Source of the DNA: Prevotella sp.
GTDB lineage: Bacteria > Bacteroidota > Bacteroidia > Bacteroidales > Dysgonomonadaceae
Length of the DNA stretch: 35,795 nucleotides
Direction: 5' to 3'
NCBI GenBank assembly: GCA_031285625.1
Contig: JAITVV010000059.1
Location: 1-35,795, forward strand
The position numbers and the translations under genes were made by a program. Positions 11,170-35,795 of the stretch are shown here, piece after piece. Numbering within the stretch: the first letter of the stretch is position 1; every line of letters begins with the position of its first letter. The notes below the pieces were generated by a model that was given only the letters and a program-made list of their open reading frames with translations, had not been told where the DNA came from and ran no database searches.

Positions 11170-11209
11170 AAGTCTAGATTTATAATTAATTTAACAATTA
11201 GGTTTAAGG

Positions 11210-12691: not shown

Positions 12692-12723
12692 AATTATCAC
12701 AAATTGCGTGTTCTTCTTATATT

Positions 12724-14268: not shown

Positions 14269-14299
14269 GGTGTTTTTATTTAGTGCTTAATAATTTATT

Positions 14300-15268
14300 T
14301 TATTGTGGACGAATACCTTCTGTTGTCATTTGTATTTTTTTTATTGTTCCATCTTCGTTATAATGGAGGCGGTCAATGCATGTAGATCGCCGATAACTAC
14401 CACCATCAACAGGCAAGCTACCATTGTGATATATAAAATACCAATTTCCTTTAAACTCAATAATTGCCTGATGATTGGTATTAGAATTTCCTGCTATTTC
14501 GTTTAACAGTCCTTTATATTCCCACGGCCCGTTTATACTCCGGCTCATCGAATAGCCTATTTTTTCGGGAAAGAATTGTGCATAAGATAAATAATACCAG
14601 TCATTGTATTTGTGAATCCACGGTGCCTCTGTAAAGTTGGGTAAATCAACAGGCATTATGGGACCATCCAATTCAATCATGTTTTCTTTTAACTTTGCAT
14701 AATAACATTGTGTATTTCCCCAGAACAGATATGCCTGACCATCATCGTCAATCCAAACAGTAGGATCAATATCATCCCATGTGATCTTCGTATATTCTGT
14801 AGTCATATCGTTTGTTACTAAAGCTGACCCTCTGGCATCTCTAAATGGCCCAAGTGGATTATCTGCAACAGCCACACCGATTGACTTACCTTGAATTGTA
14901 CCATGTTCGACTGTTACATACCAATAAAATTTACCATCACGTTCGATAACCTGTGAAGCCCATGCTTCTCCTTTAGCCCATTTAAAATCACTTGGACGAA
15001 GCGGTATTGAGTGTTCTGTCCAATTAACCAGATCGGAAGAAGAGAATACCAGCCATTCATTTATTACATAATGATTGTGAGGAGGAGGACACTCATCATG
15101 CCCTGCATATAAATACACCTTATCATTATATACTAGTGCAGCAGGGTCAGCTGTATATTTATATTTTACAATAGGATTACCATCGGCTACAAAAGTTGTA
15201 TCCCGAATAGCACCATATATATTAGATATAGAAAAAATTAAAAGAAATAATAGTTTAAAAGTTTTCAT
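14300..15268 (-). CDS. GH43 alpha-L-arabinofuranosidase/beta-xylosidase-type enzyme, secreted
   Basis: Start reassigned to MKTFKLL (ATG 15268, signal peptide); TADPA, AWASQ, DIDP, EAPW, TNHQ catalytic motifs. Confidence 0.88.
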   Translation of the reverse strand: MKTFKLLFLLIFSISNIYGAIRDTTFVADGNPIVKYKYTADPAALVYNDKVYLYAGHDECPPPHNHYVINEWLVFSSSDLVNWTEHSIPLRPSDFKWAKGEAWASQVIERDGKFYWYVTVEHGTIQGKSIGVAVADNPLGPFRDARGSALVTNDMTTEYTKITWDDIDPTVWIDDDGQAYLFWGNTQCYYAKLKENMIELDGPIMPVDLPNFTEAPWIHKYNDWYYLSYAQFFPEKIGYSMSRSINGPWEYKGLLNEIAGNSNTNHQAIIEFKGNWYFIYHNGSLPVDGGSYRRSTCIDRLHYNEDGTIKKIQMTTEGIRPQ

Positions 15269-15330
15269 GTTAGCAGATTTATGTATTAAACTTATTTTAT
15301 AGAATTTTAGATTTCGGTCGTATCTTGATA

Positions 15331-15338
15331 CAAATATA
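15331..15338 (-). promoter_or_regulatory. Bacteroidetes sigma-A -7 element for the PUL operon
   Basis: TATATTTG on - strand matches TAnnTTTG, about 60 bp upstream of the GH43 start. Confidence 0.65.
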
Positions 15339-15359
15339 TATACGTAAGTAGAATACAAT

Positions 15360-15388
15360 GGTGGACATTTAGACATTTTAGGTGGACA
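15360..15388. promoter_or_regulatory. Candidate HTCS activator site (direct repeat, 21-bp period)
   Basis: GGTGGACA at 15360 and 15381 (TGTCCACC-N13-TGTCCACC on - strand), just upstream of the -7 box. Confidence 0.65.
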
Positions 15389-15398
15389 AAAGTATTTT

Positions 15399-15417
15399 AA
15401 GTGTAAAAAATACATTT
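15399..15417. promoter_or_regulatory. Candidate AraR-type palindrome between PUL and HTCS
   Basis: AAGTGT-AAAAAAT-ACATTT (GTGT-N7-ACA). Confidence 0.5.
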
Positions 15418-15460
15418 TTTAGATAATATTATTAACTTTACTACACCAAAATCTATAAAC

Positions 15461-19699: not shown

Positions 19700-20632
19700 T
19701 TAATCTCCAATCCTCGATACTAATACAAAGGTATTTTCATTCATTAAAGAAAAACCAGGTATGGCTAATGTACCATTATAGTTACAGTTTACACCAGATT
19801 GTCCGGCTCCTAGTCTTAATCCCCAGGATGTATTATCACTCTCTATTCTTACTACATAGCTGATAGCTCCACCATGGTGCCCTTCTCTTCCGGGGTTATG
19901 GTATGCTACATTGTGTATCCTTGCCCTATCAGTTGTTATTCCATTTTTTTCCAAAGGAAAATCTACAAAATAAGATGATGCAGTACAGGCATCCCTTGGA
20001 ATCGACGGATTTGGATATGCATTTACAGACGGAATAAACTGATAAGCAAATGTTATGCTATAAACACCTTTTTTGAAATACAGATGGTAATACGCTGGAG
20101 ATTGAAAAACAAGCCTCACATCCCCATTAGTTTCATTATCAGTTTCCTTAAAGCTCAACCACCTTCTATCTCCCAAATTTGCATCCTTCATCACATCAAA
20201 CATTCCCATTACAGGATTAGCAGGATCGCTGTTATCTATTTTATCCTGGCCATTCAAATGAAAAACAGCAGATCTGGGAATACCTAAACCTTTTAACAGA
20301 TCGTTTATTTCAGCTTCAAGCACGTCTTCATAAACAAACTCTATCCATTTGCTGCCAGACCAAAAATAAAATTTCTCTTTCTCAACTTTATCATCGCCAG
20401 TTCCATTATCACCAATATTAAATACTAGAAGTCCTTTGGCTGGAGACACAATTGGGTTGGGACTGGAGACACCTTGCAATTGTATCCTCGGTCCCAAAAA
20501 ACCCAATTTTTCACTTTTTAATTCCAACACAGCACCCTTGTGTGGAGGATCACTGCTACCCATTGTCACCTGTGCAGATAAATTTAGGGAGAGTATTATT
20601 GTTATAATAAAAAAGATCAACTTATTTTTCAT
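19700..20632 (-). CDS. Secreted hypothetical protein, paralog 3 of tandem triplet
   Basis: Signal peptide; QVTMGS..PH..AVLEL.S..LGFLGP N-terminal motif; C-terminal domain shared with neighbours, ends IGD. Confidence 0.8.
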   Translation of the reverse strand: MKNKLIFFIITIILSLNLSAQVTMGSSDPPHKGAVLELKSEKLGFLGPRIQLQGVSSPNPIVSPAKGLLVFNIGDNGTGDDKVEKEKFYFWSGSKWIEFVYEDVLEAEINDLLKGLGIPRSAVFHLNGQDKIDNSDPANPVMGMFDVMKDANLGDRRWLSFKETDNETNGDVRLVFQSPAYYHLYFKKGVYSITFAYQFIPSVNAYPNPSIPRDACTASSYFVDFPLEKNGITTDRARIHNVAYHNPGREGHHGGAISYVVRIESDNTSWGLRLGAGQSGVNCNYNGTLAIPGFSLMNENTFVLVSRIGD

Positions 20633-20648
20633 ATTTTCAACTTATTTA

Positions 20649-21539
20649 CTAGTCTCCTACCTTAGTTATATATATAAAAGTATTTCTATTAGGTAAAGAA
20701 AATCCACCCACTCCGGTACAGTTACTTGGCCCCGCTCCCAATTTTACAGTCCACTCTGTACGTTGTTTTATTGGCGATATAAAATTAATAGTAGCTGCAT
20801 GAGATGACTTATCCTGTACATTATGATAAGTATTTGAATATACCCTGACAGATTTTAAACCGCTTCCATCTTCTGGATAGAAAGGAAAATCCATAAAATA
20901 CGATGATACATTACAATTAATTCCGATTGATGTTGTTGGTATAAACAAATAGGTAAAGATTATATTGTATATACCCGGTTCAAGTATTATGGTACTGGTG
21001 GTTCCTTCTTTTAGTTTAACTGCCCCTCCAGAATGATTAATGCTATCCATAAGGGGAATATCCCGGGTCGAATTTTGAGTTATTCCGTCCATAAAATTAC
21101 GAATTCCGGGCCTGTCATTAGACAGCATGTCGGTACCATCCAGATAAAGCAGTGTTGGCCGGGGTATCGACAATTTCGATATTTCTCTATCCAGCTTATA
21201 TTCGAGTTCGTCATGCCCGATAAACCTTTCCCATCCCGGGCGACTTCCTTCCACCCGGTAATAAAACCTGTAAGGATACACTCTCTCGTCAGCATCCTGA
21301 CTCATATCCGGTTCAGATATATTTAAAACCAATAGTCCAGGTACAGCATCAGGAATCGTAGTATTATCATATCTTCCGGTCAGACTAACCCTTGAGATCA
21401 AAAATCCTTTGTCAGATGACTGTAAGTCCAACATAGCACTTTCGTGTGGAGGATTTCCCGAACCAATGGTTACTTGAGCCTCAATATTGATTGGCAATAG
21501 ATGAATCAGCACTAATTGTACAATTATAATTTTTTTCAT
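20649..21539 (-). CDS. Secreted hypothetical protein, paralog 2 of tandem triplet
   Basis: Signal peptide; QVTIGS..PHESAMLDLQSSDKGFL; shared C-terminal domain, ends VGD. Confidence 0.8.
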   Translation of the reverse strand: MKKIIIVQLVLIHLLPINIEAQVTIGSGNPPHESAMLDLQSSDKGFLISRVSLTGRYDNTTIPDAVPGLLVLNISEPDMSQDADERVYPYRFYYRVEGSRPGWERFIGHDELEYKLDREISKLSIPRPTLLYLDGTDMLSNDRPGIRNFMDGITQNSTRDIPLMDSINHSGGAVKLKEGTTSTIILEPGIYNIIFTYLFIPTTSIGINCNVSSYFMDFPFYPEDGSGLKSVRVYSNTYHNVQDKSSHAATINFISPIKQRTEWTVKLGAGPSNCTGVGGFSLPNRNTFIYITKVGD

Positions 21540-21550
21540 ACTATTTCAGA

Positions 21551-22582
21551 TTATTGTACATCTCCTAATCTCGATACATATAAAAAGGTACTCTTATTGG
21601 GCATTGACAGTCCTTCCATTCCATTACAATAACTATCTCCATACCCCGTACCAAATGTGATATCCCAGACTGTTTCAGTAAGTAATACCGCAACGTAACT
21701 TATCGTATTTCCATGATCGGCATACCTCCCTTCTCCGGGTATTTCGTAGCCGGCACCATGATAACAGTTCGATTCTACCCGGGTTGATCCAGTTGTTATA
21801 TTTCCATTATCATCCACTAGAGTTACTGGAAATTGCATAAAATATGTTGCTGAGTAACATTTATCATGTCCTGGCTTATATTGGGGGTCTCCTGACCTTG
21901 GAACAGCAGTATCCGCAGGAATAAATTCATATGTAAAAATAAGACTGTAGATACCGGGTTGAAATGTTATAAAAAATTTCTTGTTGTTGTTACTAACTAC
22001 TGCCGAATCTAATTTAACAGTCCCTGATGTATAATTAACCCTCTCTTTAAAAGGCAAATAAGTAAAATTAGGTGACGAATCAGGAAAAATATCTTTTAAA
22101 GGATTGACAACTCCTAACATATCCGGATACATTATCCATCCCGAGCCTGGAAAAGGATTGTAATCGAATATTTTTTGCTGTCCATTCAATGTAAAAATAG
22201 CAGGGCGTGGTATTCCTAAATTAGCTAGACTCTGTTCCATATTCTCAAGCATGGTCTGCCTGCCCACTACCTGTATCCACCTATCTGTAGACCAATAATA
22301 ATATTTACCGGATTTTACCCTATCTCCAACAGGGGTTTCTGTATCAGAATCATTTATATTCAGAACTAATAATCCATCTGTATAATCTGGAACTGTTGTT
22401 TTATCCCATATATCTTTCAATGCTACTTGCGGTCCGAGAAATCCCTTATCCGAAGTTTTCACTTCCAGTACAGCACTGGGATGAGGCTCTTCGATTGATC
22501 CGATTGTGACCTGAGAAAATACTACAAAAGGGAAAATAACAAATAAAACCATTAGTTTTATTTTTTGCTTATAACAAATCAT
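21551..22582 (-). CDS. Secreted hypothetical protein, paralog 1 of tandem triplet
   Basis: Signal peptide; QVTIGS..PHPSAVLEVKTSDKGFLGP; shared C-terminal domain, ends LGDVQ. Confidence 0.8.
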   Translation of the reverse strand: MICYKQKIKLMVLFVIFPFVVFSQVTIGSIEEPHPSAVLEVKTSDKGFLGPQVALKDIWDKTTVPDYTDGLLVLNINDSDTETPVGDRVKSGKYYYWSTDRWIQVVGRQTMLENMEQSLANLGIPRPAIFTLNGQQKIFDYNPFPGSGWIMYPDMLGVVNPLKDIFPDSSPNFTYLPFKERVNYTSGTVKLDSAVVSNNNKKFFITFQPGIYSLIFTYEFIPADTAVPRSGDPQYKPGHDKCYSATYFMQFPVTLVDDNGNITTGSTRVESNCYHGAGYEIPGEGRYADHGNTISYVAVLLTETVWDITFGTGYGDSYCNGMEGLSMPNKSTFLYVSRLGDVQ

Positions 22583-22926
22583 AATTATTCATTCTATATT
22601 GGACATTTAAGCCTTATAAAGGTATGAATACAAAATGTAAGAATAAAGACTTATTTAGCTCCCTTTACAGAATTTCAGGTACAACTTTTGTCTGTCTTTC
22701 TAAAATATCAACAGATCATGTCTAATATATTTTATACATGACTTTTTTTCTAAAGCTGATTCATCCAATCTCTTTTTTGGTACAATCATATCTGATTGAT
22801 GATGAATTCATCTAAAACTGATGAAAAAATAAAGAAAGGCTCCTAAATCAGTACTCTATTATATTTTGTAAGACTAAACATCTTATATTAATTAGGTATA
22901 AGTGCTTTTCATGGCATATTATAATC

Positions 22927-23796
22927 TCAGATCGAAATATCCATCCTTTTATTTCTATATTGCCCTGGAGTCTGATTTGTATATTGCTTAAATAATCGAT
23001 TGAAGTATGAAATATTATCAATTGACAATTCCAACGCAATATCAGAAATAGAGAGTTCGGTGGTAAGAAGTAATAATTGTGCTTTCTCCATCTTCTTTAG
23101 ATTTATATATCTGATAGGAGTACAATTAATTTCCCTCTTAAAAATACGGATCAAATGATCTTCTGTAATACAAGCTATATTTGCCAATTGGGAAAGAGTA
23201 ACATTTTTATCTGTATTTTCATGAATATATTGCAGACATTGATTTATCCGTCCATCTTCATATCTTAATTTCAGTTTAGCTGATTCCATAAACTTGGAAA
23301 TCAATTGGTATAAAATGCCTTGTGTACCTATAATGGAATGAGTAGGTAGTCGGTTGTTATCAGCTACATACTGAGAAAAAGTGGGTATATTATCATACAT
23401 TTCCGGATCGATATATTTCAAGTGCCTATCAGGATTAATCTTCAATAACCTCTCAATTAATAATGAGTCCAAAAGATCACCTTCAATTTCGACCGGAAAA
23501 TCCAATTTTTCGAAAATAGATTCCTTATTATACGTTTTCTCATAAAAATGAATATAATAAAGAGAGAAAAAACCATCAGATTCGTCATCATGGAGGGTAA
23601 ATGGCGGGGTAAGATATAAATAACCCGGCCTTAATAGATGCATCTTCCCATTAATATAAGTCTTGGCCTCTCCACCTACCACATAATATATACGAGCAAA
23701 CGGACTATTGATATTTTTCCAGTTCCAGTTAGCATTAAGCTCGGAAAAGCCCACGTTCAATAATATTAGGTTCAGATTTTCTATTAATCGTCCCAT
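22927..23796 (-). CDS. AraC-family regulator (RhaR-like), copy 1, divergent from fucI
   Basis: N-terminal cupin (NWNWKNINSPFARIYYV), C-terminal double HTH (SYFNRLFKQYTNQTPGQYR). Confidence 0.9.
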   Translation of the reverse strand: MGRLIENLNLILLNVGFSELNANWNWKNINSPFARIYYVVGGEAKTYINGKMHLLRPGYLYLTPPFTLHDDESDGFFSLYYIHFYEKTYNKESIFEKLDFPVEIEGDLLDSLLIERLLKINPDRHLKYIDPEMYDNIPTFSQYVADNNRLPTHSIIGTQGILYQLISKFMESAKLKLRYEDGRINQCLQYIHENTDKNVTLSQLANIACITEDHLIRIFKREINCTPIRYINLKKMEKAQLLLLTTELSISDIALELSIDNISYFNRLFKQYTNQTPGQYRNKRMDISI

Positions 23797-23832
23797 CCCT
23801 CAGAATCGTTTTTATATTATCGTTGCACAATA

Positions 23833-23840
23833 CAAATATA
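23833..23840 (-). promoter_or_regulatory. -7 element for AraC copy 1
   Basis: TATATTTG on - strand about 37 bp upstream of ATG; the equivalent position before copy 2 reads TATATTCG (28430-28437). Confidence 0.55.
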
Positions 23841-23877
23841 CTTATTTATAAACAATAACAAGTTATAAATTATTCAG

Positions 23878-23946
23878 AATATCGATTTTATGCAATTCAT
23901 TGATCGATAAAATGAAAGCTAATCTTAAATTTAAAATCTATTTTTG
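23878..23946 (+). promoter_or_regulatory. fuc promoter 1: direct-repeat operator plus -7 box
   Basis: TCGATTTTATG (23882) and TCGATAAAATG (23904), 22-bp period; TATTTTTG at 23939. Confidence 0.65.
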
Positions 23947-23993
23947 TAAAAACCTAAGTCTAAAAAACACTAAACCGAAATAGAGAAATAACC

Positions 23994-25784
23994 ATGAAAA
24001 AAAACAGATTTCAAGGCCAATGGCCCAAAATAGGGATTCGTCCGACTATCGACGGCCGTATGGGTGGAGTTCGTGAGTCACTCGAAGTACAAACGATGAA
24101 CATGGCTAAAAGTGTAGTGGATTTACTCACTTCCACATTAAAATATCCTGATGGTACTCCTGTAGAATGTGTTGTAGCCGATTCAACTATCGGACGTGTA
24201 GCCGAAAGTGCAGCCTGCGCCGAAAAATTTCGTAGAGAAGGTGTAGGCGTTACTATTACTGTTACCCCTTGCTGGTGCTACGGCAGCGAAACAATGGATA
24301 TGGAACAGCATACAATAAAAGCCGTATGGGGCTTTAACGGGACAGAACGTCCGGGTGCTGTATACCTTGCTGCAGTATTAGCCGCACATGCACAAAAAGG
24401 ATTACCGGCATTCGGCATTTATGGACATGACGTACAAGATGCGGGAACAACAGAAATACCATGTGATGTGAAAGAAAAATTACTCCGTTTTGCAAAGGCT
24501 GGTTTGGCTGTTGCAACTATGCAGGGAAAATCTTATCTATCAATCGGCGCAGTATGTATGGGCATTGCAGGTTCGATCGTCAATACCGACTTCTTTGAAG
24601 ACTATTTAGGAATGCGTTGCGAAGGAGTAGACGAAGTAGAAATCATCCGTCGTATGACAGAAGGTATTTATGATAAGGATGAATATCAAAAAGCTCTGGC
24701 TTGGGCAAAAGCTAATTGTAAACAAGGTATAGATAATATAAATCGTCCCGATCTGATAAGAGATCACGCCGGAAGCGATAAAGACTGGGAGTTTATTGTA
24801 AGAATGACCCTGATCGTACGCGACCTGATGATTGGCAACCCGAAATTAAAAGAAATGGGATTCGGTGAAGAATCCCTTGGGCATAATGCCATTGCCGCAG
24901 GATTTCAGGGACAACGCCAATGGACAGATTTTTACCCGAATGGCGACTTTACCGAAGCAATACTTAACTCATCTTTCGACTGGACAGGCATTCGTTCGCC
25001 TTATGTATTAGCCACTGAAAATGATGCATTGAATGGTACTGCTATGCTATTTGGCTATTTATTAACCAATACAGCACAAATATTTGCTGATGTGCGTACA
25101 TATTGGAGTGCTGAAGCTGTAGAGCGTGTTACAGGGCATAAGCTCGAAGGCCTTGCAGCAGGAGGTATGATCCATCTTATCAACTCAGGTGCGGCTACTT
25201 TGGATGGTAGTGGACGCCAGAATGATAAGGAAGGTAAACCTACGATGAAACCATTCTGGGATATTACCGAGACAGAAGCAAAAGCATGTTTGGATGCGAC
25301 GACATGGATGCCTGCAAACCGTGAATATTTCCGTGGAGGAGGTTTTTCGTCCAAATTCCTTACACGTGGGGGAATGCCATGTACAATGGTTCGCCTCAAT
25401 CTGGTAAAAGGATTAGGCCCAGTATTACAAATAGCGGAAGGCTGGACCGTTGACCTTGATCCTGAGGTACACAAAATACTGGATGAGAGAACAGATAAGG
25501 GCTGGCCTACAACTTGGTTTGTTCCACGCTTAACTGACAGTGACAACTTTAAAGATGTATACTCTGTAATGAATAACTGGGGAGCCAATCATGGATCTAT
25601 CAGCTGTGGTCATATCGGAGCAGACCTTATCACATTAGCATCAATGCTTCGTATACCAGTTTGCATGCATAATGTAGATGAGGAAAATATTTATCGTCCT
25701 TCATCATGGAATGCCTTTGGCATGGATAAGGAAGGTGCAGATTACAGAGCATGCCAAACATATGGTCCTCTTTATAAAAAATAG
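23994..25784 (+). CDS. fucI: L-fucose isomerase, copy 1
   Basis: [66 protein letters not shown]. Confidence 0.96.
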
Positions 25785-25794
25785 ATAACCGGTT

Positions 25795-25827
25795 CCGGAA
25801 ATTAATAAAAGCCAGAAATTAATAAAA
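25795..25827 (+). repeat. 17-bp-period tandem duplication in the fucI-fucA spacer
   Basis: CCGGAAATTAATAAAA (25795) and CCAGAAATTAATAAAA (25812). Confidence 0.7.
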
Positions 25828-25837
25828 AACACAATCA

Positions 25838-26101
25838 ATGATTACTAAATATATATCAGAATTCATCAATCAGGCTCATCGTGTAGGTGCAGAACGTTTA
25901 CAACTTTGTAGTAGCGGGAACCTCTCATGGAGAGTAGAAGATAACCTGGCATTAGTTTCCGGAACAGGCTCATGGCTTCCGCGTTTAGCAGAAGAAAATG
26001 TAGTATTATGTGAGATATCCAGTGGCATGCGCGTAGATGGTCCGAAACCATCTATGGAAAGTACATTCTGCCTGGGACTACCGATAGGAAGAAACAAGTA
26101 G
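25838..26101 (+). pseudogene. fucA: Truncated L-fuculose-1-phosphate aldolase (about 77-80 codons, then unrelated tail)
   Basis: Aligns with intact copy at 31702 to PSMESTF(C)LG, then diverges to LPIGRNK*; the metal-binding His region and C-terminal 130+ aa are absent. Confidence 0.9.
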
Positions 26102-26241
26102 AACCCCAAACTCGAAAGTTTCAACAACCGAAAGAAAATCAGCAGAATAACCTTACTGTGGTGGAAAGGTTAGAAATAGAGACTTCATAAAATACAGGCT
26201 TTTGTTGTACAATTGTTAGACTAAAAACAATTGGGATCACA

Positions 26242-27444
26242 ATGAAAGCGACACTCAAAATTTTACTCAGGAACAATTACCGGACAAAGGAAGGCAAACG
26301 TCAGGTTTGCATCCGTTATACATCCTATAGACAGGCAACGTTTATAGGGTTAAACATATCCGTACACCCCAAAGACTGGAACGATAGCAGAAAGCAGGTC
26401 AAGGCTACCGAGCCACACCATTTGCTTTACAACCGCATTATTAAGGAACAGTACCATAAATCGGAAGGCATCATACTGGATAATTTCCTGACACCCCTAA
26501 CCACTAAAGACTTTATAGCGAAGCTAAAGGATAAACATTATGGTAACGAAGACTTCTATACTTTCATAGAAAACGAGTTGGAACTCATCAAGTCTTCCCG
26601 AGCGAGCCAAACCCTGTCCAACTACCGCAACCTTATCAACAAGATGAAGGAATGGAAACCCTCATTAACCTTCAATGAAATCACACTGGAATACATCCAG
26701 CGTTTCCACGACCACGAACTGAAAACAGGCAACATACTCTCCACTATCTATAAGAAACACGCCAATTTCAAGTTCCTGCTGGGTCTTGCGGTAAACAAGG
26801 AATACATGGAAAAGAACCCATACGAAAAGTTCGAGATAAAGAAGATAACAAAGGCACAGAATAACGATATACTGACCGAAGACGAACTGAAGATACTTCA
26901 AGAAGCCTATAACCAAGACAGATATACCGGAGGCAAGAAAGAAGTCCTGCGTGACTTCCTCTTTAGCTGTTACACCTCACTCAGTTATGCTGAGTTCCAC
27001 AATGTTACTTACGGCGATTTAAAGCCCGTTACGATAAAAGTAGATGGCAAGGAAGAAACATACCCTCTATTATGCAATGACCGCCAGAAAACGGCTGTAT
27101 TGTATAAGATACCCATTGTCTCACCCATAGTAGAACAGTTATTGGAACGAAAGACAAAAAAAGGAGATAAGGAAGCATTCCAAAAGATATTTTCTCCTTT
27201 GACTAACCAGCCGACTAACCGTTATTTGAAAGAAATCATAGAAGACCTGAATATTAATAAGACGATGACCTTTCATCGAGCAAGACATAGTTTCCGCACG
27301 ATAGCTGCGAAGAAAGGTATCCGGGACAGCATAGCCGAACGGATTATGGGGCATGCCGAGGGTAACGACATTCAAAATATCTACATGCACCTGAGTGACG
27401 AGGATATTGTTAGGGAGATGCTGGATAAGTGGGTGGTAAAGTAA
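26242..27444 (+). CDS. Bacteroidetes tyrosine recombinase/integrase (IntDOT-like)
   Basis: Arm-binding N-terminus, SAM-like middle (NPYEKF), catalytic domain FLFSCYTSLSYAE, RQKT, FHRARHSF, IMGH, IY. Confidence 0.92.
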   Translation: MKATLKILLRNNYRTKEGKRQVCIRYTSYRQATFIGLNISVHPKDWNDSRKQVKATEPHHLLYNRIIKEQYHKSEGIILDNFLTPLTTKDFIAKLKDKHYGNEDFYTFIENELELIKSSRASQTLSNYRNLINKMKEWKPSLTFNEITLEYIQRFHDHELKTGNILSTIYKKHANFKFLLGLAVNKEYMEKNPYEKFEIKKITKAQNNDILTEDELKILQEAYNQDRYTGGKKEVLRDFLFSCYTSLSYAEFHNVTYGDLKPVTIKVDGKEETYPLLCNDRQKTAVLYKIPIVSPIVEQLLERKTKKGDKEAFQKIFSPLTNQPTNRYLKEIIEDLNINKTMTFHRARHSFRTIAAKKGIRDSIAERIMGHAEGNDIQNIYMHLSDEDIVREMLDKWVVK

Positions 27445-27534
27445 ATTGCAGGATAGTGCACGATAGGGCGGTATATAGTTTAAATTTTAAAATATTTTTT
27501 TCAATGATTATTAAGATACGTGAATTAAACTATC

Positions 27535-28395
27535 TTAGCTAATATATGTACTCCGGTAGCCGCCGGGAGTTAGTCCCGTATATTGCTTGAACAACCGGTT
27601 AAAATAAGAGATATTGTCAATGGATAAATTAAGGGCGATATCGGTTATTTGCATATCCGTTGTTAAAAGCAGTAATTGCGCCCTCTCGATTTTCTTTTGG
27701 TTTATATATTTTACGGGAGTGCAGTCCAGTTCTTTCCTGAAAATACGGGTTAAATGGTCTACGGAGACGCACGCGATATCAGCCAGCCGGAGCAGCGTGA
27801 TATCTTTATCCATATTTTCATGAATGTATTGCATACATTTATTTATCCGTTCGTTTTTATATCTCATTTTCAGGCCGGCAAACCGGAGGAAGCGGGAAAC
27901 CAGCCAGGATAGTATGCTCTGGGTTTCCATGAACGAGTGCACAGGCAATATATTGTTGTCGGCTACATATCGGGAAAACGCGGGCATATTATCGTATACG
28001 CCGGGGTCTATGTGCTTCAGTTCCCTGTCCGGGTTTATATGCATCAGCCTTTTAACGAGCGACAGTTCCAGGGAGTCCGCGCTGATTTCAACCGGAAAAT
28101 CAAGTTTATCGAAAAGAGGTTCCCTATTATTTATCTTTTCATAAAAATGTATATAATAGAGGGAAAACAAACCGTCGCATTCATCGTCATGCAACGTGAA
28201 GGGTGGGGTAAGGTACAGGCTCCCGGGCTTCAATACATACATCTTTCCATTGATATATGTTCTGGCCTGTCCGCCGGTTACATAGTATATGCGGGCAAAC
28301 GGGCTGCAAACCTTTTTCCAGTTCCAGTCGGCATTCAGTTCCGAGAAACCGATATTCAGCAGGATGAAGCTTAAGTTATCGACAAGTTTATGCAT
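27535..28395 (-). CDS. AraC-family regulator (RhaR-like), copy 2
   Basis: Start reassigned to MHKLVDNL by alignment to copy 1; about two-thirds identical to copy 1 by manual count. Confidence 0.9.
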   Translation of the reverse strand: MHKLVDNLSFILLNIGFSELNADWNWKKVCSPFARIYYVTGGQARTYINGKMYVLKPGSLYLTPPFTLHDDECDGLFSLYYIHFYEKINNREPLFDKLDFPVEISADSLELSLVKRLMHINPDRELKHIDPGVYDNMPAFSRYVADNNILPVHSFMETQSILSWLVSRFLRFAGLKMRYKNERINKCMQYIHENMDKDITLLRLADIACVSVDHLTRIFRKELDCTPVKYINQKKIERAQLLLLTTDMQITDIALNLSIDNISYFNRLFKQYTGLTPGGYRSTYIS

Positions 28396-28473
28396 GGCAG
28401 GTGTCGTTTTTATGGCTTGGTTACGAATGCGAATATACACATTAACAAGTTATCACAGTACTGTTTTCTTTAA

Positions 28474-28542
28474 AATATCGGATTTGTGATATTAACTGGT
28501 CGGTAAAGTGAAAGTTATTTTTGCTTCAAGAATCTATATTTG
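28474..28542 (+). promoter_or_regulatory. fuc promoter 2: direct-repeat operator plus -7 box
   Basis: TCGGATTTGTG (28478) and TCGGTAAAGTG (28500), 22-bp period; TATATTTG at 28535. Confidence 0.7.
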
Positions 28543-28599
28543 CATATAGCCCGGATAAAACAGGATTTAAATAATCAACCGTTAAAATCTAAAAATATC

Positions 28600-30387
28600 A
28601 TGACAAGAAAAAGATTTCAAGGCGAATGGCCTAAAATTGGTATCCGTCCCACAATCGACGGACGTATGGGTGGTGTACGTGAATCACTCGAGACCCAGAC
28701 TATGAACATGGCGAAAAGTGTGGTTAGCCTGTTAACCGCTACACTTAAATATCCTGACGGGACTCCCGTGCAGTGCGTGATTGCGGATTCTACAATCGGC
28801 CGCGTAGCCGAAAGTGCAGCATGTGCTGAAAAATTCCGCAGGGAAGGAGTTGGCGTGACCATTACCGTTACTCCCTGCTGGTGTTATGGCAGCGAAACGA
28901 TGGATATGGAACCGCATACGGTTAAAGCTGTCTGGGGATTCAATGGCACAGAGCGCCCCGGAGCAGTATATCTTGCGGCAGTATTAGCCGGACATGCACA
29001 AAAAGGATTGCCTGCCTTTGGCATCTATGGACGTGATGTTCAGGATGCAGGTACTACCGAATTGCCTGCCGATGTGAAAGAAAAACTGCTTCGTTTTGCT
29101 AAAGCTGCATTAGCAGTCGCTACTATGCGCGGCAAATCATATCTGTCTATCGGAGCCGTATGTATGGGTATAGCAGGGTCTATCGTGAATACAGATTTCT
29201 TTGAAGATTACCTGGGCATGCGTTGCGAAGGTATAGACGAAGTGGAAATTATCCGCCGTATGACCGAAGGCATCTATGATAAGGAAGAATACGAAAAAGC
29301 ATTGGCATGGGCAAAAGCTAACTGCAAACAGGGTGAAGATAATATTAACCGTCCCGACCTGAAAAGAGACCCGGCCGGCAGTGATAAGGATTGGGAGTTT
29401 ATCGTAAAAATGACGCTCATTGTGCGCGACCTGATGGCAGGTAATCCGAAGCTCAAGGATATGGGATTTGGTGAAGAAGCATTGGGACACAATGCAATTG
29501 TCGCAGGATTTCAGGGCCAACGCCAGTGGACAGACTTTTATCCGAATGGCGACTTTACCGAAGCTATCCTTAATTCATCGTTTGACTGGACGGGAATACG
29601 TTCTCCTTATGTTTTGGCAACAGAAAACGATGCGCTGAACGGAACTGCGATGTTGTTCGGGTACTTATTAACAAATACAGCCCAGATATTCGCCGACGTG
29701 CGCACTTACTGGAGTGCCGAGGCTGTTGAACGTGTTACAGGAAAGAAACTGGACGGTTTGGCCTCAGGAGGAATGATTCATCTTATCAATTCCGGTGCGG
29801 CTACTCTGGATGGTAGCGGTCGCCAGAATGATGAAAATGGTAAGCCTACTATGAAACCGTTCTGGAACATTACCGAGGCAGAGGCGAAAGCCTGTCTGGA
29901 TGCAACTACATGGATGCCTGCCAACCGTGAATATTTCCGTGGGGGTGGTTTTTCATCTAAATTCCTGACTCGTGGAGGCATGCCATGTACAATGGTGCGC
30001 CTGAATCTGGTGAAAGGTCTCGGGCCTGTCTTGCAGATTGCCGAAGGATGGACTGTAGAACTGGAGCCTGCTGTACACAAAATACTGGATGATCGCACAG
30101 ATAAAGGCTGGCCTACAACATGGTTTGTGCCTCGCCTGACTGACGATCCTAATTTCAAGGATGTATACTCGGTAATGAACAACTGGGGAGCCAACCATGG
30201 TTCTATCAGTTGCGGGCATATCGGTGCCGATCTGATTACTTTGGCATCCATGCTTCGCATCCCTGTTTGTATGCACAATGTGAGCGCCGATAATATTTAC
30301 CGTCCGGCTGCATGGGCTGCATTCGGTATGGATAAGGAAGGCGCCGATTATCGCGCTTGTCAGACTTATGGACCTCTTTATAAATAA
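28600..30387 (+). CDS. fucI: L-fucose isomerase, copy 2
   Basis: Start at ATG 28600 (MTRKRF) by alignment; about 92% aa identity to copy 1 by manual count, many synonymous differences. Confidence 0.96.
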
Positions 30388-30396
30388 TTTATGTGT

Positions 30397-30510
30397 GAGG
30401 CTGTCTGAAAGGTAGTTGTTTGTCATCCTGACCAACGAGAAGGATTTATCTTCTTATTGTAAGAGATGTTTCACTACGTTCAACATGACAAAAAGCCCTT
30501 TTAGACAGCT
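30397..30510. repeat. Nested inverted-repeat element (MITE/REP-like) between fucI and fucO
   Basis: Outer IR GCTGTCTGAAAGG (30400) / CCTTTTAGACAGC (30497), 1 mismatch; inner IR TTTGTCAT (30419) / ATGACAAA (30485). Confidence 0.7.
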
Positions 30511-30550
30511 TTATATTTAAAATTCTACATACTCACAAATAAATGAAACT

Positions 30551-31705
30551 ATGATAAACAGATTCGTTCTGAATGAGGTGGCTTATTTTGGTCCGGGCGC
30601 CCGTCTAGTTTTACCTGATGAGATAAAAAGACTGGGATTGCATAAGGCTTTTGTTGTGACAGATAAAGATCTGATAAAGTTCGGTGTGGCTGAAAAAGTG
30701 CTTTCTGTTCTTGAAACGGCAAAAATACCATATGAAGTGTTCAGTGAAATAAAACAGAATCCGACTGTAAAGAATGTAAAAGACGGATTGACTGCATATG
30801 CCGGATCGGGAGCCGATTTTATTCTGGCTATTGGTGGAGGTTCATCTATCGATACGGCGAAGGCTATAGGCATTGTTTCCAATAATCCGGAATTCAGTGA
30901 TATTGTTTCCCTGGAAGGAACAGCGGCCACCAAAAATAAATCAGTACCTGTTATTGCGTTGCCTACCACGGCCGGAACAGCCGCCGAGGTAACAATCAAC
31001 TATGTGATAACAGACGAAGTAAATCAAAAGAAAATGGTTTGCGTCGATCCGAATGATATACCGATTCTGGCTATTGTAGACGCAGAACTGATGTACACAT
31101 TGCCGAAGAGCCTTACGGCAGCTACGGGTATGGATGCATTGACTCATGCTATAGAAGGCTTGATTACAAAAGGGGCATGGGAGATGAGTGATATGTTCGA
31201 AATAAAGGCTATCGAAATGATAAACCGCCACTTGGTGACTGCTACATTCGAACCGGATAATGCTGAAGCCCGCAACGGTATGGCTGTAGCTCAATATATT
31301 GCAGGAATGGCATTCTCAAATGTAGGCTTGGGTCTTGTACATGGTATGGCGCATCCTCTGGGTGCAATATTCGATATACCGCATGGTGTGGCAAATGCTA
31401 TGTTGCTCCCTACAGTGATGGAATATAATTCTCCTGCTGCTATCGGCAAATATGTGACAATAGCTAAGGCGATGGATGTATATCAGCCCGGAAAATCGAA
31501 AGTAGAAAACGCGCAACTGGCGATCAATGCCGTAAAACACCTGGCTGAAAAAGTCGGTATACCTGAACATTTGAGTGAATTCGGAATTACAGAAAACGAT
31601 TTGGATAAACTGGCAGAAGCGGCAGTAAATGATGTTTGCACTCCCGGCAATCCGAGGGAAGTAACCAAAGAAATTATTATTGAATTATATAGAAAAGTAT
31701 TATGA
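30551..31705 (+). CDS. fucO: Lactaldehyde reductase (1,2-propanediol oxidoreductase), Fe-ADH family
   Basis: NRFVLNEVAYFG, GGGSSIDTAKAI, PTTAGTAAEVTINYVITD, GMDALTHAIE, HGMAHPLG..HGVAN, DVCTPGNPR. Confidence 0.93.
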   Translation: MINRFVLNEVAYFGPGARLVLPDEIKRLGLHKAFVVTDKDLIKFGVAEKVLSVLETAKIPYEVFSEIKQNPTVKNVKDGLTAYAGSGADFILAIGGGSSIDTAKAIGIVSNNPEFSDIVSLEGTAATKNKSVPVIALPTTAGTAAEVTINYVITDEVNQKKMVCVDPNDIPILAIVDAELMYTLPKSLTAATGMDALTHAIEGLITKGAWEMSDMFEIKAIEMINRHLVTATFEPDNAEARNGMAVAQYIAGMAFSNVGLGLVHGMAHPLGAIFDIPHGVANAMLLPTVMEYNSPAAIGKYVTIAKAMDVYQPGKSKVENAQLAINAVKHLAEKVGIPEHLSEFGITENDLDKLAEAAVNDVCTPGNPREVTKEIIIELYRKVL

Positions 31706-32346
31706 TAACCCAGGAACATATAGAGCAGTTTATAGAAGCTGCTCATCGTGTCGGTCGCGAACGTCTTCAATTATGCAGTAGTGGAAACCTGTCGTGGAGA
31801 GTAGAAGAAAACCGGGCTTTGGTATCGGGAACAGGTTCATGGTTGCCGCGTCTAGCCAAAGAGAATGTTGCCATATGCGATATTTCAACAGGAATGCCTG
31901 TCGATGGACCTAAACCGTCTATGGAGAGCGTATTTCATTTAGGCGTTTTGCGTGAGCGTAAAGACATGAATGTGGTACTGCATTTCCAGTCGGAATTTGC
32001 TACTATCGTTTCCTGTATGAAGAATAAACCGGGAAACTTTAATGTTGTGGCAGAAGTTCCTTGTTATTGCGGAAAAGAAATTCCTGTTATACCTTATTTC
32101 CGTCCGGGATCGAAAGAACTGGCAGAGGCAGTAACAGAAGCATTGACCGATCACGATTGTGTGCTGATGGGCAAACACGGTCAGGCTGTATGTGGAAAAG
32201 ACTTTGACGATGCTTTTCAGAAGGCCGTATTTTTCGAACTCGCATGTAGCATTATTGTACGTGCTGGTGAAGGAAACTATCAGACTCTGACCGAAGATGA
32301 AATTCGCGATCTTGAAGTTTATATATTGGGAAAAAACACAAAATAA
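31702..32346 (+). CDS. fucA: L-fuculose-1-phosphate aldolase (class II), intact
   Basis: CSSGNLSWR, KPSMESVFHLG, VVLHFQS, HG motifs; overlaps fucO stop (ATGA). Confidence 0.88.
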   Translation: MITQEHIEQFIEAAHRVGRERLQLCSSGNLSWRVEENRALVSGTGSWLPRLAKENVAICDISTGMPVDGPKPSMESVFHLGVLRERKDMNVVLHFQSEFATIVSCMKNKPGNFNVVAEVPCYCGKEIPVIPYFRPGSKELAEAVTEALTDHDCVLMGKHGQAVCGKDFDDAFQKAVFFELACSIIVRAGEGNYQTLTEDEIRDLEVYILGKNTK

Positions 32347-32351
32347 ATACG

Positions 32352-33812
32352 ATGGCTTATTTGGCTTTAGATCTCGGTGCCGGAAGTGGCCGGGCTATTG
32401 TAGGAACTATTGAGGACGAAAAACTGGAACTTATTGAAATACACCGTTTCAATAATGTTCCCGTAAAGATGGGAAATACTCTCTATTGGGATTTTCTATC
32501 CTTATTTTCGAATATCAAAGAGAGTATCCGGTTGGCTGTAAAAAGAGGCTATGTGTTGCAAGGAATAGCTGTGGATACCTGGGGTGTTGATTTCGGACTA
32601 ATTGACAAATCCGGTAAATTACTCTCGAACCCTGTATGCTACCGGGATAGCCGTACTAAAGGAATGATGCCGGGAGCAATGAAATTAATATCTCAGAACG
32701 AACTGTATTCCATAACCGGAATCCAGCAAATGGAGATTAATTCTGTATTCCAGCTAATGAGCATGGGGAAACATAAAGATCCGACTTTATTAGTGGGGGA
32801 CAGACTATTGTTTACACCGGATCTGATAAACTTTTTCCTCACAGGCACTGTCTGCAATGAGTACACAATAGCTTCGACTTCCCAACTCTTAAACGCCCAA
32901 ACAAAAGAATGGGAAAAAAGTATATTCGACCGGCTGGGTCTGCCATCACATATGATGAGTGAAATCATACACCCTTGTTCTGTGATAGGAGAATTAAACA
33001 AGGATATTGCGGTGGAAACAGGAGTCGAAAACTCCAACGTATTTGCCGTAGGCTCTCATGATACAGCGAGCGCTATAGCTGCTATTCCGATGGAAGATGA
33101 TAATTGTGCCTTTCTTAGTTCAGGAACATGGTCTTTGCTGGGAGTTTTGCTGGACGAACCGATACTTAGTAATGAAGCTATGAATAATGAATTTACGAAT
33201 GAAGGCGGGGTTGATAATAAGATTCTCTTTATGAGGAATATTACAGGGCTTTGGTTGCTTCAACGTTTAATAGCCGAATGGGAAAAAAGTAATGAGGAAC
33301 TGTCTTATGAATATCTTTTATCAGCATGTAATCAAAGTGAACCTTTCCGCAGTATTGTAGACAGTGACGATCCGCTATTCAACAATCCGGCTTCAATGAC
33401 TGCGGCAATCAGGGAATATTGTACATATACTAACCAGAAATGCCCTGAAACACAAGGGGAGTTTGTTCGTTGTGTCCTTGAATCACTGGCTTTGAAGTAT
33501 AAAGTTGTGATGGAGAAACTGCAGGACTGTACAGGTAAGAAGATACAAAAGTTATATGTAGTAGGGGGAGGCAGCCGGAATGAGCTGTTGAACCAGTATA
33601 TATCGGACGCCCTGAATATGGAGGTAATCACAGGGCTTACAGAAGCAACAGCCATCGGAAATATCGTACAACAGGCTATAGCGAATAAACAGCTGGCGAA
33701 TATGAAAAAAGGCCATCAGATAATAAGTAACAGCTTTGATTTTAAATCTTACTATCCTCAAAACAGTGAAGATTGGGAGAATGCGGTGAAAACGTATGCC
33801 AATATATTCTGA
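32352..33812 (+). CDS. fucK: L-fuculokinase (FGGY, RhaB-like)
   Basis: LALDLGAGSGR, DTWGVDF, YRDSRT, SHDTASA, SSGTWSLLG, FTNEGG, VGGGSRN, EATAIGN; operon context. Confidence 0.85.
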   Translation: MAYLALDLGAGSGRAIVGTIEDEKLELIEIHRFNNVPVKMGNTLYWDFLSLFSNIKESIRLAVKRGYVLQGIAVDTWGVDFGLIDKSGKLLSNPVCYRDSRTKGMMPGAMKLISQNELYSITGIQQMEINSVFQLMSMGKHKDPTLLVGDRLLFTPDLINFFLTGTVCNEYTIASTSQLLNAQTKEWEKSIFDRLGLPSHMMSEIIHPCSVIGELNKDIAVETGVENSNVFAVGSHDTASAIAAIPMEDDNCAFLSSGTWSLLGVLLDEPILSNEAMNNEFTNEGGVDNKILFMRNITGLWLLQRLIAEWEKSNEELSYEYLLSACNQSEPFRSIVDSDDPLFNNPASMTAAIREYCTYTNQKCPETQGEFVRCVLESLALKYKVVMEKLQDCTGKKIQKLYVVGGGSRNELLNQYISDALNMEVITGLTEATAIGNIVQQAIANKQLANMKKGHQIISNSFDFKSYYPQNSEDWENAVKTYANIF

Positions 33813-33850
33813 AATAACTATTTTGTGATTGAAAAAAGAATTAATACCAT

Positions 33851-35185
33851 ATGAACAACACTAAGAAATCATTATTTACGGGAAGTCAGGGACAAAGTTA
33901 CCTGTTTCCTTTCATCCTGATAACAAGCCTTTTCTTCTTATGGGGGTTTGCCCACAGCCTGCTGGATGTATTAAATAAACATTTCCAGGATTCACTGCAT
34001 CTGACAAAGGCCCAATCGGGAGCCGTACAGGCATCGGCCTATGGAGCTTATTTCCTGATGGCGATACCGGCAGGTATAATTGCCCGGAAATTTGGGTATA
34101 AAAGAGGTATAATCGTAGGGCTTATCTTGTTTGCCTTAGGTGCATTCTGGTTTGTCCCGGCAGTAAGCATCGATACATTCTGGGCTTTTTTGCTGGGACT
34201 TCTTATTCTGTTTTGCGGGCTGACCTGCCTCGAAACAGTGGCTAATCCGTATACAATCGTATTGGGACCACCCGAAACATCTGCCAGCCGTATTAATCTT
34301 GCACAGACATTCAATGCTATCGGATGGATACTGGGCCCTTTGGTAGGCTCTATACTTATCTTTGGTAATGAGTCGGATAAATCTATATTTGAATTATTTA
34401 CAGAAGCGCTGGAGAAAGTCTTTCTGGGTGCTGCTGACACAGTTCAGACTGTGGCAAATACCGTAGAGGAACATACCGGTAATTCGGCCCTGATACCACC
34501 CTATGTAAGTTTAGGTATCTTAGTCCTTTTGGTGCTGGTTCTGTTCTTATTCACCAAACTTCCGGAGATATCCTCAAACGATGACGCACATCGAGCAGAA
34601 GTTGATAATACTATCACAAATAATAAACCATTGGTCAAACAAAAGCATTTCGTGATGGCTGTTATAGCCCAGCTTTTATATGTGGCGGCGCAAACCGGTA
34701 TCGGCAGCTTTTTTATTAACTACACGATAGAAGTAAAAGAGCTGCAACTGAACGAAATGCAGGGTGGACTCTTGCTCGGTATGGGCGGTATGGCATTGTT
34801 TGCCATCGGACGCTTCTCGGGAAGCTTTATCATGCGAAAAATCAAGCCCGGAACCTTATTGGGTACATTTGCCCTGATAAATACCTTGCTAATGCTGTTT
34901 GTGACTCTTAATCATAACCGCTTTGGTGTAATGGCACTGATTGCATCCTATCTGTTTATGTCGATTATGTTCCCTTCCATTTTTGCCTTGGGGGTAAAAG
35001 GCTTGGGGGAGAAAACAAAAACGGCAGCCTCTATTCTTGTACTGACAGTAGTCGGAGGGGCTATAGCGCCTGGTCTTATGGGAGTAATAGGAGCGAAAAG
35101 CATGAATACAGGCTTTATTATTCCGCTAATCTGCTTCTTGTATATTTCATTTTTCGGATATATAGGCGGACGGATAAAAAATTGA
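33851..35185 (+). CDS. fucP: L-fucose:H+ symporter (MFS, FucP family)
   Basis: FILITSLFFLWGFA, LETVANPY, RINLAQTFN, LYVAAQ, MSIMFPSIFALG, multiple TM helices. Confidence 0.85.
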   Translation: MNNTKKSLFTGSQGQSYLFPFILITSLFFLWGFAHSLLDVLNKHFQDSLHLTKAQSGAVQASAYGAYFLMAIPAGIIARKFGYKRGIIVGLILFALGAFWFVPAVSIDTFWAFLLGLLILFCGLTCLETVANPYTIVLGPPETSASRINLAQTFNAIGWILGPLVGSILIFGNESDKSIFELFTEALEKVFLGAADTVQTVANTVEEHTGNSALIPPYVSLGILVLLVLVLFLFTKLPEISSNDDAHRAEVDNTITNNKPLVKQKHFVMAVIAQLLYVAAQTGIGSFFINYTIEVKELQLNEMQGGLLLGMGGMALFAIGRFSGSFIMRKIKPGTLLGTFALINTLLMLFVTLNHNRFGVMALIASYLFMSIMFPSIFALGVKGLGEKTKTAASILVLTVVGGAIAPGLMGVIGAKSMNTGFIIPLICFLYISFFGYIGGRIKN

Positions 35186-35263
35186 AAAACAATTATTTGC
35201 TTTATGAAGTAAAGAGTCCGGATACCTTATTCTATTCACAAATATGAATATCCTTATATTAAG

Positions 35264-35332
35264 AATGTCGGTTTTGTGCAATAAACTGGTCGGATATGTG
35301 AAAAGCATTAACAAAAACTTAGCGTATTTTTG
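35264..35332 (+). promoter_or_regulatory. Third copy of the fuc operator/promoter architecture
   Basis: TCGGTTTTGTG (35268) and TCGGATATGTG (35290), 22-bp period; TATTTTTG at 35325, same 35-bp offset as promoters 1 and 2. Confidence 0.7.
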
Positions 35333-35460
35333 AAAAATCAATCATTGTAACCATATTCATGCTTGTAATATAAACCAGTTAATGACACAATCCCAACAAA
35401 AATACAGCGAACCGCAACGATTATTCCTCTCTGAAAATTTGGAAGTTAGCATTGTTTTGT

Positions 35461-35519
<59 letters not shown>

Positions 35520-35676: not shown

Positions 35677-35795
35677 ATGAAAAAATCTAAAACAAAATTG
35701 AAAAAGCATGATGGATGCCTTTTTCACAGAAGTATGAGAATTTGTTTTATACTGTTCTCTGCCGGTTTTTGGACGATGCTGTCTGCTGCTCCGGT
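35677..35795 (+). CDS. 5' end of an exported protein, possibly SusC-like (runs off window)
   Basis: MKKSKTKLKKHDGCLFHRSMRICFILFSAGFWTMLSAAP: long basic N-region then hydrophobic stretch, as in many SusC signal regions; AT-rich upstream. Confidence 0.5.
   Translation, partial: MKKSKTKLKKHDGCLFHRSMRICFILFSAGFWTMLSAAP

Follow-up and report, generated by a model that had tools for sequence, protein, structure and literature searches.

How does a chromosome come to carry, within a single locus, a fucose operon whose fucA gene breaks off, an integrase gene and then a second, complete set of fucose genes? The question is raised by a 35,795-nucleotide (nt) stretch of DNA, hereafter the window, which is the whole of contig JAITVV010000059.1 (C71 in our numbering) in GenBank assembly GCA_031285625.1 of Prevotella sp., a genome placed by GTDB in the Dysgonomonadaceae. 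An earlier note on this DNA had described the order AraC, fucI and fucA fragment, integrase, second fuc set, and its figures proved accurate throughout when set against the open reading frames (ORFs) and their Pfam domains. In our assessment, the locus is probably explained by an island resembling the nonreplicating Bacteroides units (NBUs), of a type directed to tRNA-Ile(GAT), that sits at a secondary site within fucA, the lesion being tolerated because the cargo of the island complements it.

The assembly (G000) comprises 96 contigs and 4.84 Mb (completeness 94%, contamination 3.9%). Labels such as G002 stand for other genomes of the genus, loci carry L-numbers, contigs C-numbers, and sequencing runs are X1 to X3. 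Of the sampled words, 91% occur in run X1, from which the assembly was probably made, so it does not count as independent support; X2 and X3 cover the stretch in part, and the parts that they leave uncovered were not taken as evidence.

An Insertion That Splits the Resident fucA

The left-hand operon (copy 1) and the junction at which it ends are made up of four features.

22927..23796, minus strand: AraC1, regulator of the resident (vertically inherited) fuc operon; Pfam HTH_AraC, HTH_18 and AraC_binding; G+C at third codon positions (GC3) 0.31; groups with G002 in the tree
23994..25784, plus strand: fucI1, resident L-fucose isomerase, intact; Pfam Fucose_iso N1, N2 and C; sister to G002 in the tree
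25838..26101, plus strand: fucA1', 5' fragment of the resident fucA, 87 amino acids (aa); class II aldolase N terminus
26063..26081, no strand: attL, the left junction, ACATTCTGCCTGGGACTAC; imperfect repeat of attR, with core TCTGCCTGGGACTAC from 26067

The fragment fucA1' is 77% identical to residues 1-82 of FucA2, the aldolase of the second operon (copy 2), and the match then ends, at 26069-26081. Its reading frame is fucA-derived to about 26068, runs on through 10 element-encoded codons and stops at 26101. The remainder of the gene, which the earlier note had expected beyond the window together with a short junction repeat, is present on another contig (G000:C92:~1093-1504), after a 19-nt imperfect repeat. 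It resumes at ...HLGVLRER and, in a search of the genome against itself, is 78-80% identical to FucA2 residues 76-213. Downstream of it on C92 lie an intact fucK1 (1584-3047) and then fucP1 (3066-4298), which the island separates from the fucI1 promoter. In a DNA alignment with fucA2 and the fucA of G002, the two fucA1 pieces abut exactly at the junction repeat. The right junction, attR (ACACTCCACCTGGGAGTAC, G000:C92:1093-1111), is identical to attL at 15 of 19 positions, and fucA-type letters stand to the left of about 26068 in attL and to the right of about C92:1098 in attR, a distribution that fits one reciprocal exchange near 'TC'. The core at attL corresponds to the 3' end of tRNA-Ile(GAT); the left end of the element includes the final 16 nt of this tRNA, and the 15-mer at attL is the sole exact copy in the assembly.

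The junction does not restore its target, the product of fucA1' having 87 aa against 214 aa for the full protein. In the 3' piece, DNA alignment reveals one extra nucleotide near C92:1196-1199, which brings a TAA into frame.

A 22,980-nt contig from run X2, which belongs to another study, matches 22900-26081 at 97.7% identity (72 differences, 3 gaps). After that match come 182 letters and then an alignment, at 80%, with fucA2 (32131-32334); the loose end of the contig, at 32596, reads letter for letter as fucK1 does at C92:1829-1858. An uninterrupted fucA would need exactly 182 letters at this place, which indicates an empty site in a near relative, and the contig shows that the left part of C71 and C92 are adjacent in an uninterrupted chromosome. 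The empty-site comparison that had been proposed for this locus was thus borne out, with the locus running uninterrupted into fucK1. It had also been supposed that the insertion reading would fall if the integrase belonged at tRNA genes and fucA had been truncated by a later deletion; the first part of that alternative is correct, as set out below, and the second is not, the truncation being a true insertion.

The Integrase and Its Usual Target

What kind of element made the insertion? Its left end, directly after the junction, holds two features.

26082..26241, plus strand: left arm of the element, a conserved block with a putative arm-type site, TTGTACAATTGTTAGAC (26205-26221), just 5' of the integrase gene (int)
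26242..27444, plus strand: tyrosine integrase, full length; Pfam Arm-DNA-bind_5, Phage_int_SAM_5 and Phage_integrase

The integrase aligns from end to end with six homologs at 71-92% identity, and R237, H345-x-x-R348, H371 and Y381, which we take to be the canonical R-H-R-H-Y catalytic set, are invariant in all seven. There is no second integrase of this family in G000, where the next-best paralog is 28% identical. Homologs of the family, at 50-80% identity, occur in 11 of the 34 other genomes of the genus, and the closest metagenome locus, L092, reaches 90%.

Our set of integrase loci consists of 10 from a species-representative genome collection and 6 from metagenome contigs, and 13 of them have sequence upstream of int. 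In 10 of these 13 homolog loci, CTGCCTGGGACTAC is found about 150-170 nt before the int start. It is the 3' end of an intact tRNA-Ile(GAT) in four of them (L066, L093, L094 and L096; ARAGORN and Rfam), lies within a tRNA 3' fragment of only 21 or 32 nt in L073 and L092, and is present as the core only in L068, L069, L072 and L075. The more distant homologs L071, L060 and L063 (62-71% identity) adjoin tRNA-Cys(GCA). Judged by these neighborhoods, the family is evidently tRNA-directed, carries the tRNA 3' end with it and is also found at non-tRNA places.

Fucose genes are not a trait of this family. At nine loci in the genus, searched over up to about 10 kb on each side (less at contig ends) and with matches below 40% identity or 40% query coverage dropped, there were no fuc or AraC matches, and the six metagenome loci gave no match except int. 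Related elements carry radical-SAM/Nif11, HEPN-NTase, type VI secretion and SprB/PKD proteins, a range that includes genes like those for ribosomally synthesized and post-translationally modified peptides. The expectation that integrase homologs might stand beside a split fucA elsewhere was not realized: the 15 loci examined are without fuc genes, and homologs lie at tRNA-Ile(GAT) in four cases and, for more distant ones, at tRNA-Cys in three. Two family integrases stand in tandem in L069 (10001-13394), L094 (252-3689) and L097, and in L068 the core is directly preceded by RteC and HTH_17 genes, observations that suggest accretion of elements at one site.

The left-arm block with TTGTACAATTGTTAGAC is conserved upstream of int in L066, L067, L068, L073, L092, L093 and L096, and an exact second copy of this 17-mer stands in the right arm (C92:1015-1031). 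Within C92:472-1031 there are four occurrences of its 13-nt core, where 0.11 would be expected, and none of 200 shuffles reached that count. These repeats are putative arm-type sites for the Arm-DNA-binding domain of the integrase. Small ORFs in C92:273-1090 matched no credible Pfam family and included no excisionase. The right arm also contains a segment, C92:525-950, with 86% identity to C17:36-464, the 3' end of an ATPase-like gene with a promoter-like region downstream; this looks like host DNA taken up in an earlier round of excision or insertion. After five loci showed no tRNA and three no Rfam match, the segment was no longer taken as the mark of a former tRNA or rRNA target.

Which Copy Is Native

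Which of the two operons was there first? The operon typical of the genus is AraC divergent from fucI-fucA-fucK-fucP, and among 12 fuc loci fucO is found only in G002. In midpoint-rooted trees of 11-13 rows, copy 1 is sister to G002 (FucI 100/99, FucK 100/98, AraC 89/85), and copy 2 stands on its own branch for FucI and FucK, with AraC2 joining the G000/G002 clade at 97/96. The FucI and AraC trees suggested as a check therefore placed copy 1 with G002 and the FucI of copy 2 on its own. FucP1 shares 87-90% identity with most congeners; FucP2 shares 77-81% with the proteins of G021, G005, G027 and G020 and only about 50% with FucP1. The element part of C71 has 42.3% G+C against 37.0% for the genome, and GC3 is 0.35-0.53 in the element (0.53 in both int and AraC2) against 0.28-0.33 in copy 1. 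Trees, identities and composition show copy 1 as the native operon and copy 2 as foreign in origin.

The opposite polarity, with copy 2 resident and copy 1 incoming, or an old tandem duplication split at a later date, is scarcely credible. It could draw on FucA, the pieces of FucA1 being 75-91% identical to the proteins of congeners and FucA2 85-90%, but the lower identity of FucA1 is in keeping with decay of a broken gene. The sister relationship of copy 1 to G002 in three trees, the closer match of FucP1 than of FucP2 (about 50%) to most congeners, the host-like composition of copy 1 and the X2 contig, in which copy 1 is contiguous with no copy 2 between its parts, all speak against such a reversal.

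No donor of copy 2 was identified. Nothing above 64% identity to FucK2 was found in 401 sampled genomes of the order, and the closest proteins in the genus are at 65-71%; this points to a lineage outside the sampling, probably one within the same family. The fuc operon of G020 is no closer to copy 2. DNA searches of the genus with the int-AraC2 junction and the region after fucP2 did not turn up the cargo context a second time, the matches being only AraC homologs, GA-repeats and one homolog of a SusC start (G020:C315). In G013, two adjacent AraC paralogs, 61-67% identical to AraC1 and AraC2, stand by the fuc operon (L050, G013:C19, 12303-14062).

The Cargo Operon and Its Probable Consequences for Fucose Use

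What does the island bring? From AraC2 to fucP2 there are six genes.

27535..28440, minus strand: AraC2, regulator of the cargo operon, divergent from fucI2; Pfam; 68% identical to AraC1; GC3 0.53
28540..30387, plus strand: fucI2 (likely start 28600); scores 1110 bits with the NCBIfam fucI equivalog (cut-off 850)
30551..31705, plus strand: fucO, lactaldehyde reductase (iron-containing alcohol dehydrogenase), the only copy in the assembly; NCBIfam 611 bits against a cut-off of 537; one tblastn match
31702..32346, plus strand: fucA2, class II aldolase, the only intact fucA-type gene in the assembly; Pfam Aldolase_II
32352..33812, plus strand: fucK2, FGGY rhamnulokinase-like kinase; Pfam FGGY_N/C; NCBIfam rhamnulokinase 479 bits, below the cut-off of 528
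33851..35185, plus strand: fucP2, L-fucose:H+ symporter (major facilitator superfamily; 444-aa type); scores 347 bits with NCBIfam fucP (cut-off 280)

In pathways of the Escherichia coli type, fucose is taken up by a permease and processed by an isomerase, a kinase and an aldolase to dihydroxyacetone phosphate and lactaldehyde, which FucO reduces to propanediol. The names fucA and fucK rest here on operon context, because both proteins score below all equivalog cut-offs; the best FucA model gives the aldolase 76 bits against a cut-off of 264. FucI1 and FucI2 are 92% identical in protein and 80% in DNA, and AraC1 and AraC2 68% in protein, in agreement with the earlier note (FucI about 92%, AraC about two-thirds by manual count). 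FucK2 is 64% identical to FucK1. When FucA2 was searched against its own genome, the other matches were the two fucA1 pieces or were at most 26% identical.

The proposal that the lesion is complemented by a xenologous, self-regulated operon that adds fucO thus stands, inasmuch as the only intact fucA and the only fucO of the assembly are those of the element. Fucose use would now depend on the AraC2 regulon of the island. Given the frameshift in fucA1, precise excision would not restore that gene.

Further fucose-type sugar loci exist in the same genome: a third fucI-like gene (67% identical to FucI2) with a fucP-like gene at G000:C28:~128000-135000, and a FucP2-like permease (74%) at G000:C95:7356-8672. 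In the spacer between fucI2 and fucO, a palindromic repeat, gtcatcctgacc...gttcaacatgac (window 30420-30495), has a depth of 273 in X1 and 112 in X2, with flanks at about 50; this excess suggests a small dispersed repeat found in many genomes of these communities.

Why fucA

Why, then, should a tRNA-directed element lie in fucA? The fucA1 of G000 matches the core at 12 of 15 positions and that of its sister G002 at 11, as against 5-9 in ten other fucA genes of the genus and 5 in fucA2 of the element itself. The site resembles the core because of the synonymous codon choices of this lineage. Elsewhere in the assembly such resemblance is limited: the 15-nt core has 4 sites with two mismatches and 39 with three, the latter including the fucA side of attR, and the 19-nt attP, as reconstructed, differs from the reconstructed fucA site at 4 positions, with only 6 other places in the assembly as good. 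In all 13 other genomes of the genus with a close fucA, the gene is intact and single, the matched residues covering at least 1-211 of 214; the match in G015 includes a TAA, the position of which was not checked.

These observations bear on a second way of viewing the locus, in which the island has evolved to target fucA, swap the pathway and make the host dependent ("addictive"). In its favor, the cargo serves the pathway to which the target belongs, the host has no intact fucA and no fucO except those on the island, and the frameshifted remnant means that excision would not restore fucose growth. In addition, the core-bearing loci with tRNA fragments (two) or the core only (four), together with the present one, indicate that the family does use other sites. 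Against this view, the core of the element equals the 3' end of tRNA-Ile, not fucA; the resemblance is a synonymous accident of this lineage that falls to 5-9 of 15 in most congeners, none of the 15 homolog loci has fuc genes, the 13 other fucA genes of the genus are whole, and the junction does not rebuild fucA. We regard evolved targeting as very improbable. The earlier suggestion that the element targets a catabolic gene is not supported, in view of the tRNA-Ile core, the homologs at tRNA genes and the lineage-limited resemblance of fucA, and neither is that of pathway swapping by design.

A related proposal is that insertion in fucA is a recurrent, selected route by which an island disables a resident step and supplies a regulon while the resident copy decays, and this we consider distinctly unlikely. 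If it were true, the island would be a metabolic "addiction" module that the host could not lose without losing growth on fucose, and would provide a site-specific mechanism for displacing an operon in situ by a xenologous one.

Extent of the Element and Continuity of the Contig

How far does the island reach, and is it one element? On C71 it extends from about 26069 to the end of the contig, and the visible parts, 9.7 and 1.1 kb, come to about 10.8 kb. Two features follow fucP2.

35462..35517, no strand: (AG)28 microsatellite between fucP2 and the next gene; Tandem Repeats Finder period 2, 28 copies, 100% matches
35677..35795, plus strand: SusC-like TonB-dependent transporter, 5' part only, cut short by the contig end; 73% identical over 37 aa to L111:317-1930

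The protein encoded at L111:317-1930 (G020) has CarboxypepD_reg and Plug domains, and the SusC-like start matches its N terminus. At the other side of the gap, C92:1-273 encodes a SusD-like C terminus (PF12741, E 1.6e-35), likely the end of the partner of the SusC-like gene. These two ends flank an unassembled gap, and the SusD-like end is followed by the 820-nt right arm. Further cargo of the polysaccharide utilization locus (PUL) type, as anticipated downstream, is therefore predicted across the contig gap in the form of at least one SusC/SusD-like pair. The island would measure about 15 kb if the gap holds the rest of one such pair, and it may be larger and include mobilization genes.

The contigs of both assemblers break at the (AG)28 microsatellite, which, with its flank, has many BLAST matches in 23 of the 34 other genomes of the genus, where GA-repeats are common. 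No overlap between the end of C71 and the start of C92 was found with any of the 96 contigs (exact k-mers of 21-127 nt), and tblastn with a related SusC/SusD pair of G010 located the missing middle on no contig. A collapsed repeat at the C92 break was ruled out, C92:1-272 being only 79% identical to a paralogous SusD on C33. No conjugation genes (type IV secretion system, coupling protein) are found in the visible parts of the element, and a Mob_Pre relaxase occurs in the element of the integrase relative L066. The sole Mob_Pre homolog of G000 lies on C22 beside a 430-aa ORF, with no tie to the island found.

Read support for the contig is even across its doubtful places. Logan contigs of X1 over 22900-26496, 27413-29265 and 29241-35450 agree with the window without a difference, at depths of 47, 48 and 50. 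At 26069 and 27480, where a chimeric join had been thought of, X1 contigs span both places with no differences and an even depth of 47-50. Within int (26340-27400), the summed depth in X1 is 106-124 and the graph is broken into unitigs of 150-210 nt, from which it follows that several integrase variants coexist in that metagenome. The unitigs specific to the variant of the window have a depth of 52-57, near the 47-50 of the flanks, and show no differences.

It is here that another reading has its place, namely that the integrase element and the fuc2-SusC/D block were stacked separately, or that the contig is a chimera joined through the multi-variant int. The high depth and short unitigs of int would permit this, as would the missing middle and the tandem integrases of L069, L094 and L097, and a minor X1 contig (depth 5.7, shorter side 34 nt) joins 27446, the base after the int stop, to 35262, which is 77 nt past fucP2, omitting AraC2-fucIOAKP (7,815 nt). 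If that join is real, the metagenome also contains a version of the element that lacks the cassette, and the fuc block forms a separate module. Set against this are the variant-specific unitigs, the unusual GC3 of 0.53 that int and AraC2 share, and the 17-nt arm motif by int that recurs exactly beside attR on C92; the DNA between fucA1' and the 3' piece (fucA1'') is, in any case, inserted. We think a composite or chimeric origin unlikely, and return to a single tRNA-Ile(GAT)-type island as the preferred account.

Beyond the island, the resident fuc operon adjoins an arabinan-type PUL (window 312-19693) containing two GH43 genes, alpha-L-arabinofuranosidases, GH97, SusC/SusD, DUF3823 and a hybrid two-component regulator, and three ORFs at 19700-22582 have no Pfam family. 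Nucleotides 1-99 of C71 are identical to C36:1-99, a repeat at the contig end.

A Likely Course of Events

Several points weigh against a single off-target island, and they are best taken together. The assembly, with 42 tRNAs, has no tRNA-Ile gene, and the primary site may have been free, occupied or absent; at a guess, the missing gene may lie in unassembled rRNA operons. For an element carrying fuc genes to land in a fuc gene requires luck of roughly 1 in 7 to 1 in 43, an estimate that assumes equal use of pseudo-sites of equal quality, although such a coincidence of pathway need cause no surprise when a single case is selected from a very large scan. The link from attL and the 5' part of int to the cargo crosses about 0.9 kb of multi-variant int in X1. 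The middle of the element, from the end of C71 to the start of C92, is not in the assembly, and a composite of at least two elements is possible. No relaxase, oriT or excisionase is seen in the visible 10.8 kb. The attB of the empty site was not read letter by letter, and the frameshift in fucA1 could be an error of the assembly consensus.

With these points in mind, the following sequence of events appears plausible. An integrase of this Dysgonomonas family would normally recombine with the 3' end of tRNA-Ile(GAT). In this lineage, the element would have integrated at a pseudo-att site in the resident fucA, at codons ~76-82 (TFHLGVL), where the match is 12/15 in the core and 15/19 in the junction repeat. 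The insertion, of at least about 10.8 kb as visible and probably of 15 kb or more, splits fucA1 and cuts fucK1-fucP1 off from their promoter. The cargo regulon AraC2/fucI2-fucO-fucA2-fucK2-fucP2, together with at least one SusC/SusD-like pair, may then have taken over fucose catabolism, so that a landing in fucA that was presumably off-target was made tolerable, or was even selected, by the cargo. The +1 frameshift, probably acquired after insertion, would have locked in dependence on the island.

Viewed in this way, the locus may be an early snapshot of operon replacement, with four of the five resident genes intact and the fifth split and frameshifted. It suggests that a tRNA-targeting island can land off-target in a gene and persist by way of complementing cargo, and the homolog loci define a Dysgonomonas family of apparent tRNA-Ile(GAT) integrases with very varied cargo.

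Relation to Known Systems

To which known elements is this island most akin? A full-text literature search, of which titles and the openings of abstracts were considered, turned up no published element inside fucA that carries a fuc operon. No new mechanism is revealed here; the island belongs with the NBU-like, tRNA-directed islands and with catabolic or PUL cargo on mobile elements.

NBU1 targets the 3' end of tRNA-Leu and NBU2 that of tRNA-Ser, and integration at secondary sites is documented for NBU1 (PMC5704250). The likeness lies in a single tyrosine integrase at one end and in a primary target at a tRNA 3' end that the element carries with it. The island differs in that its target is tRNA-Ile(GAT) and that it carries a sugar-catabolic regulon with SusC/D in place of resistance or small accessory genes. 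The comparison is one of features and not of IntN1 or IntN2 sequences, and the visible part of the island has no relaxase or oriT.

Islands and prophages that restore their targets likewise enter a coding or tRNA gene site-specifically and make good the damage. In the present case, by contrast, the junction leaves fucA broken, and what complements the lesion is an entire, diverged operon in another part of the cargo; this looks fortuitous rather than a property of the att site. The integrative and conjugative elements that bring porphyran and agarose PULs to gut Bacteroidales are large, possess transfer genes and add a new capability. The island shares with them the horizontal transfer of glycan utilization on integrase elements, but here a pathway already resident was duplicated and replaced. 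Xenologous gene displacement in situ is a concept of comparative genomics, and the resemblance to it lies in the outcome, a diverged operon acquired horizontally having assumed, at the same locus, the function of a resident homologous one. The difference is that the route here appears to have been site-specific recombination at a pseudo-att site rather than homologous recombination in conserved flanks, and that the process is seen at an early stage, with the resident AraC, fucI, fucK and fucP still intact.

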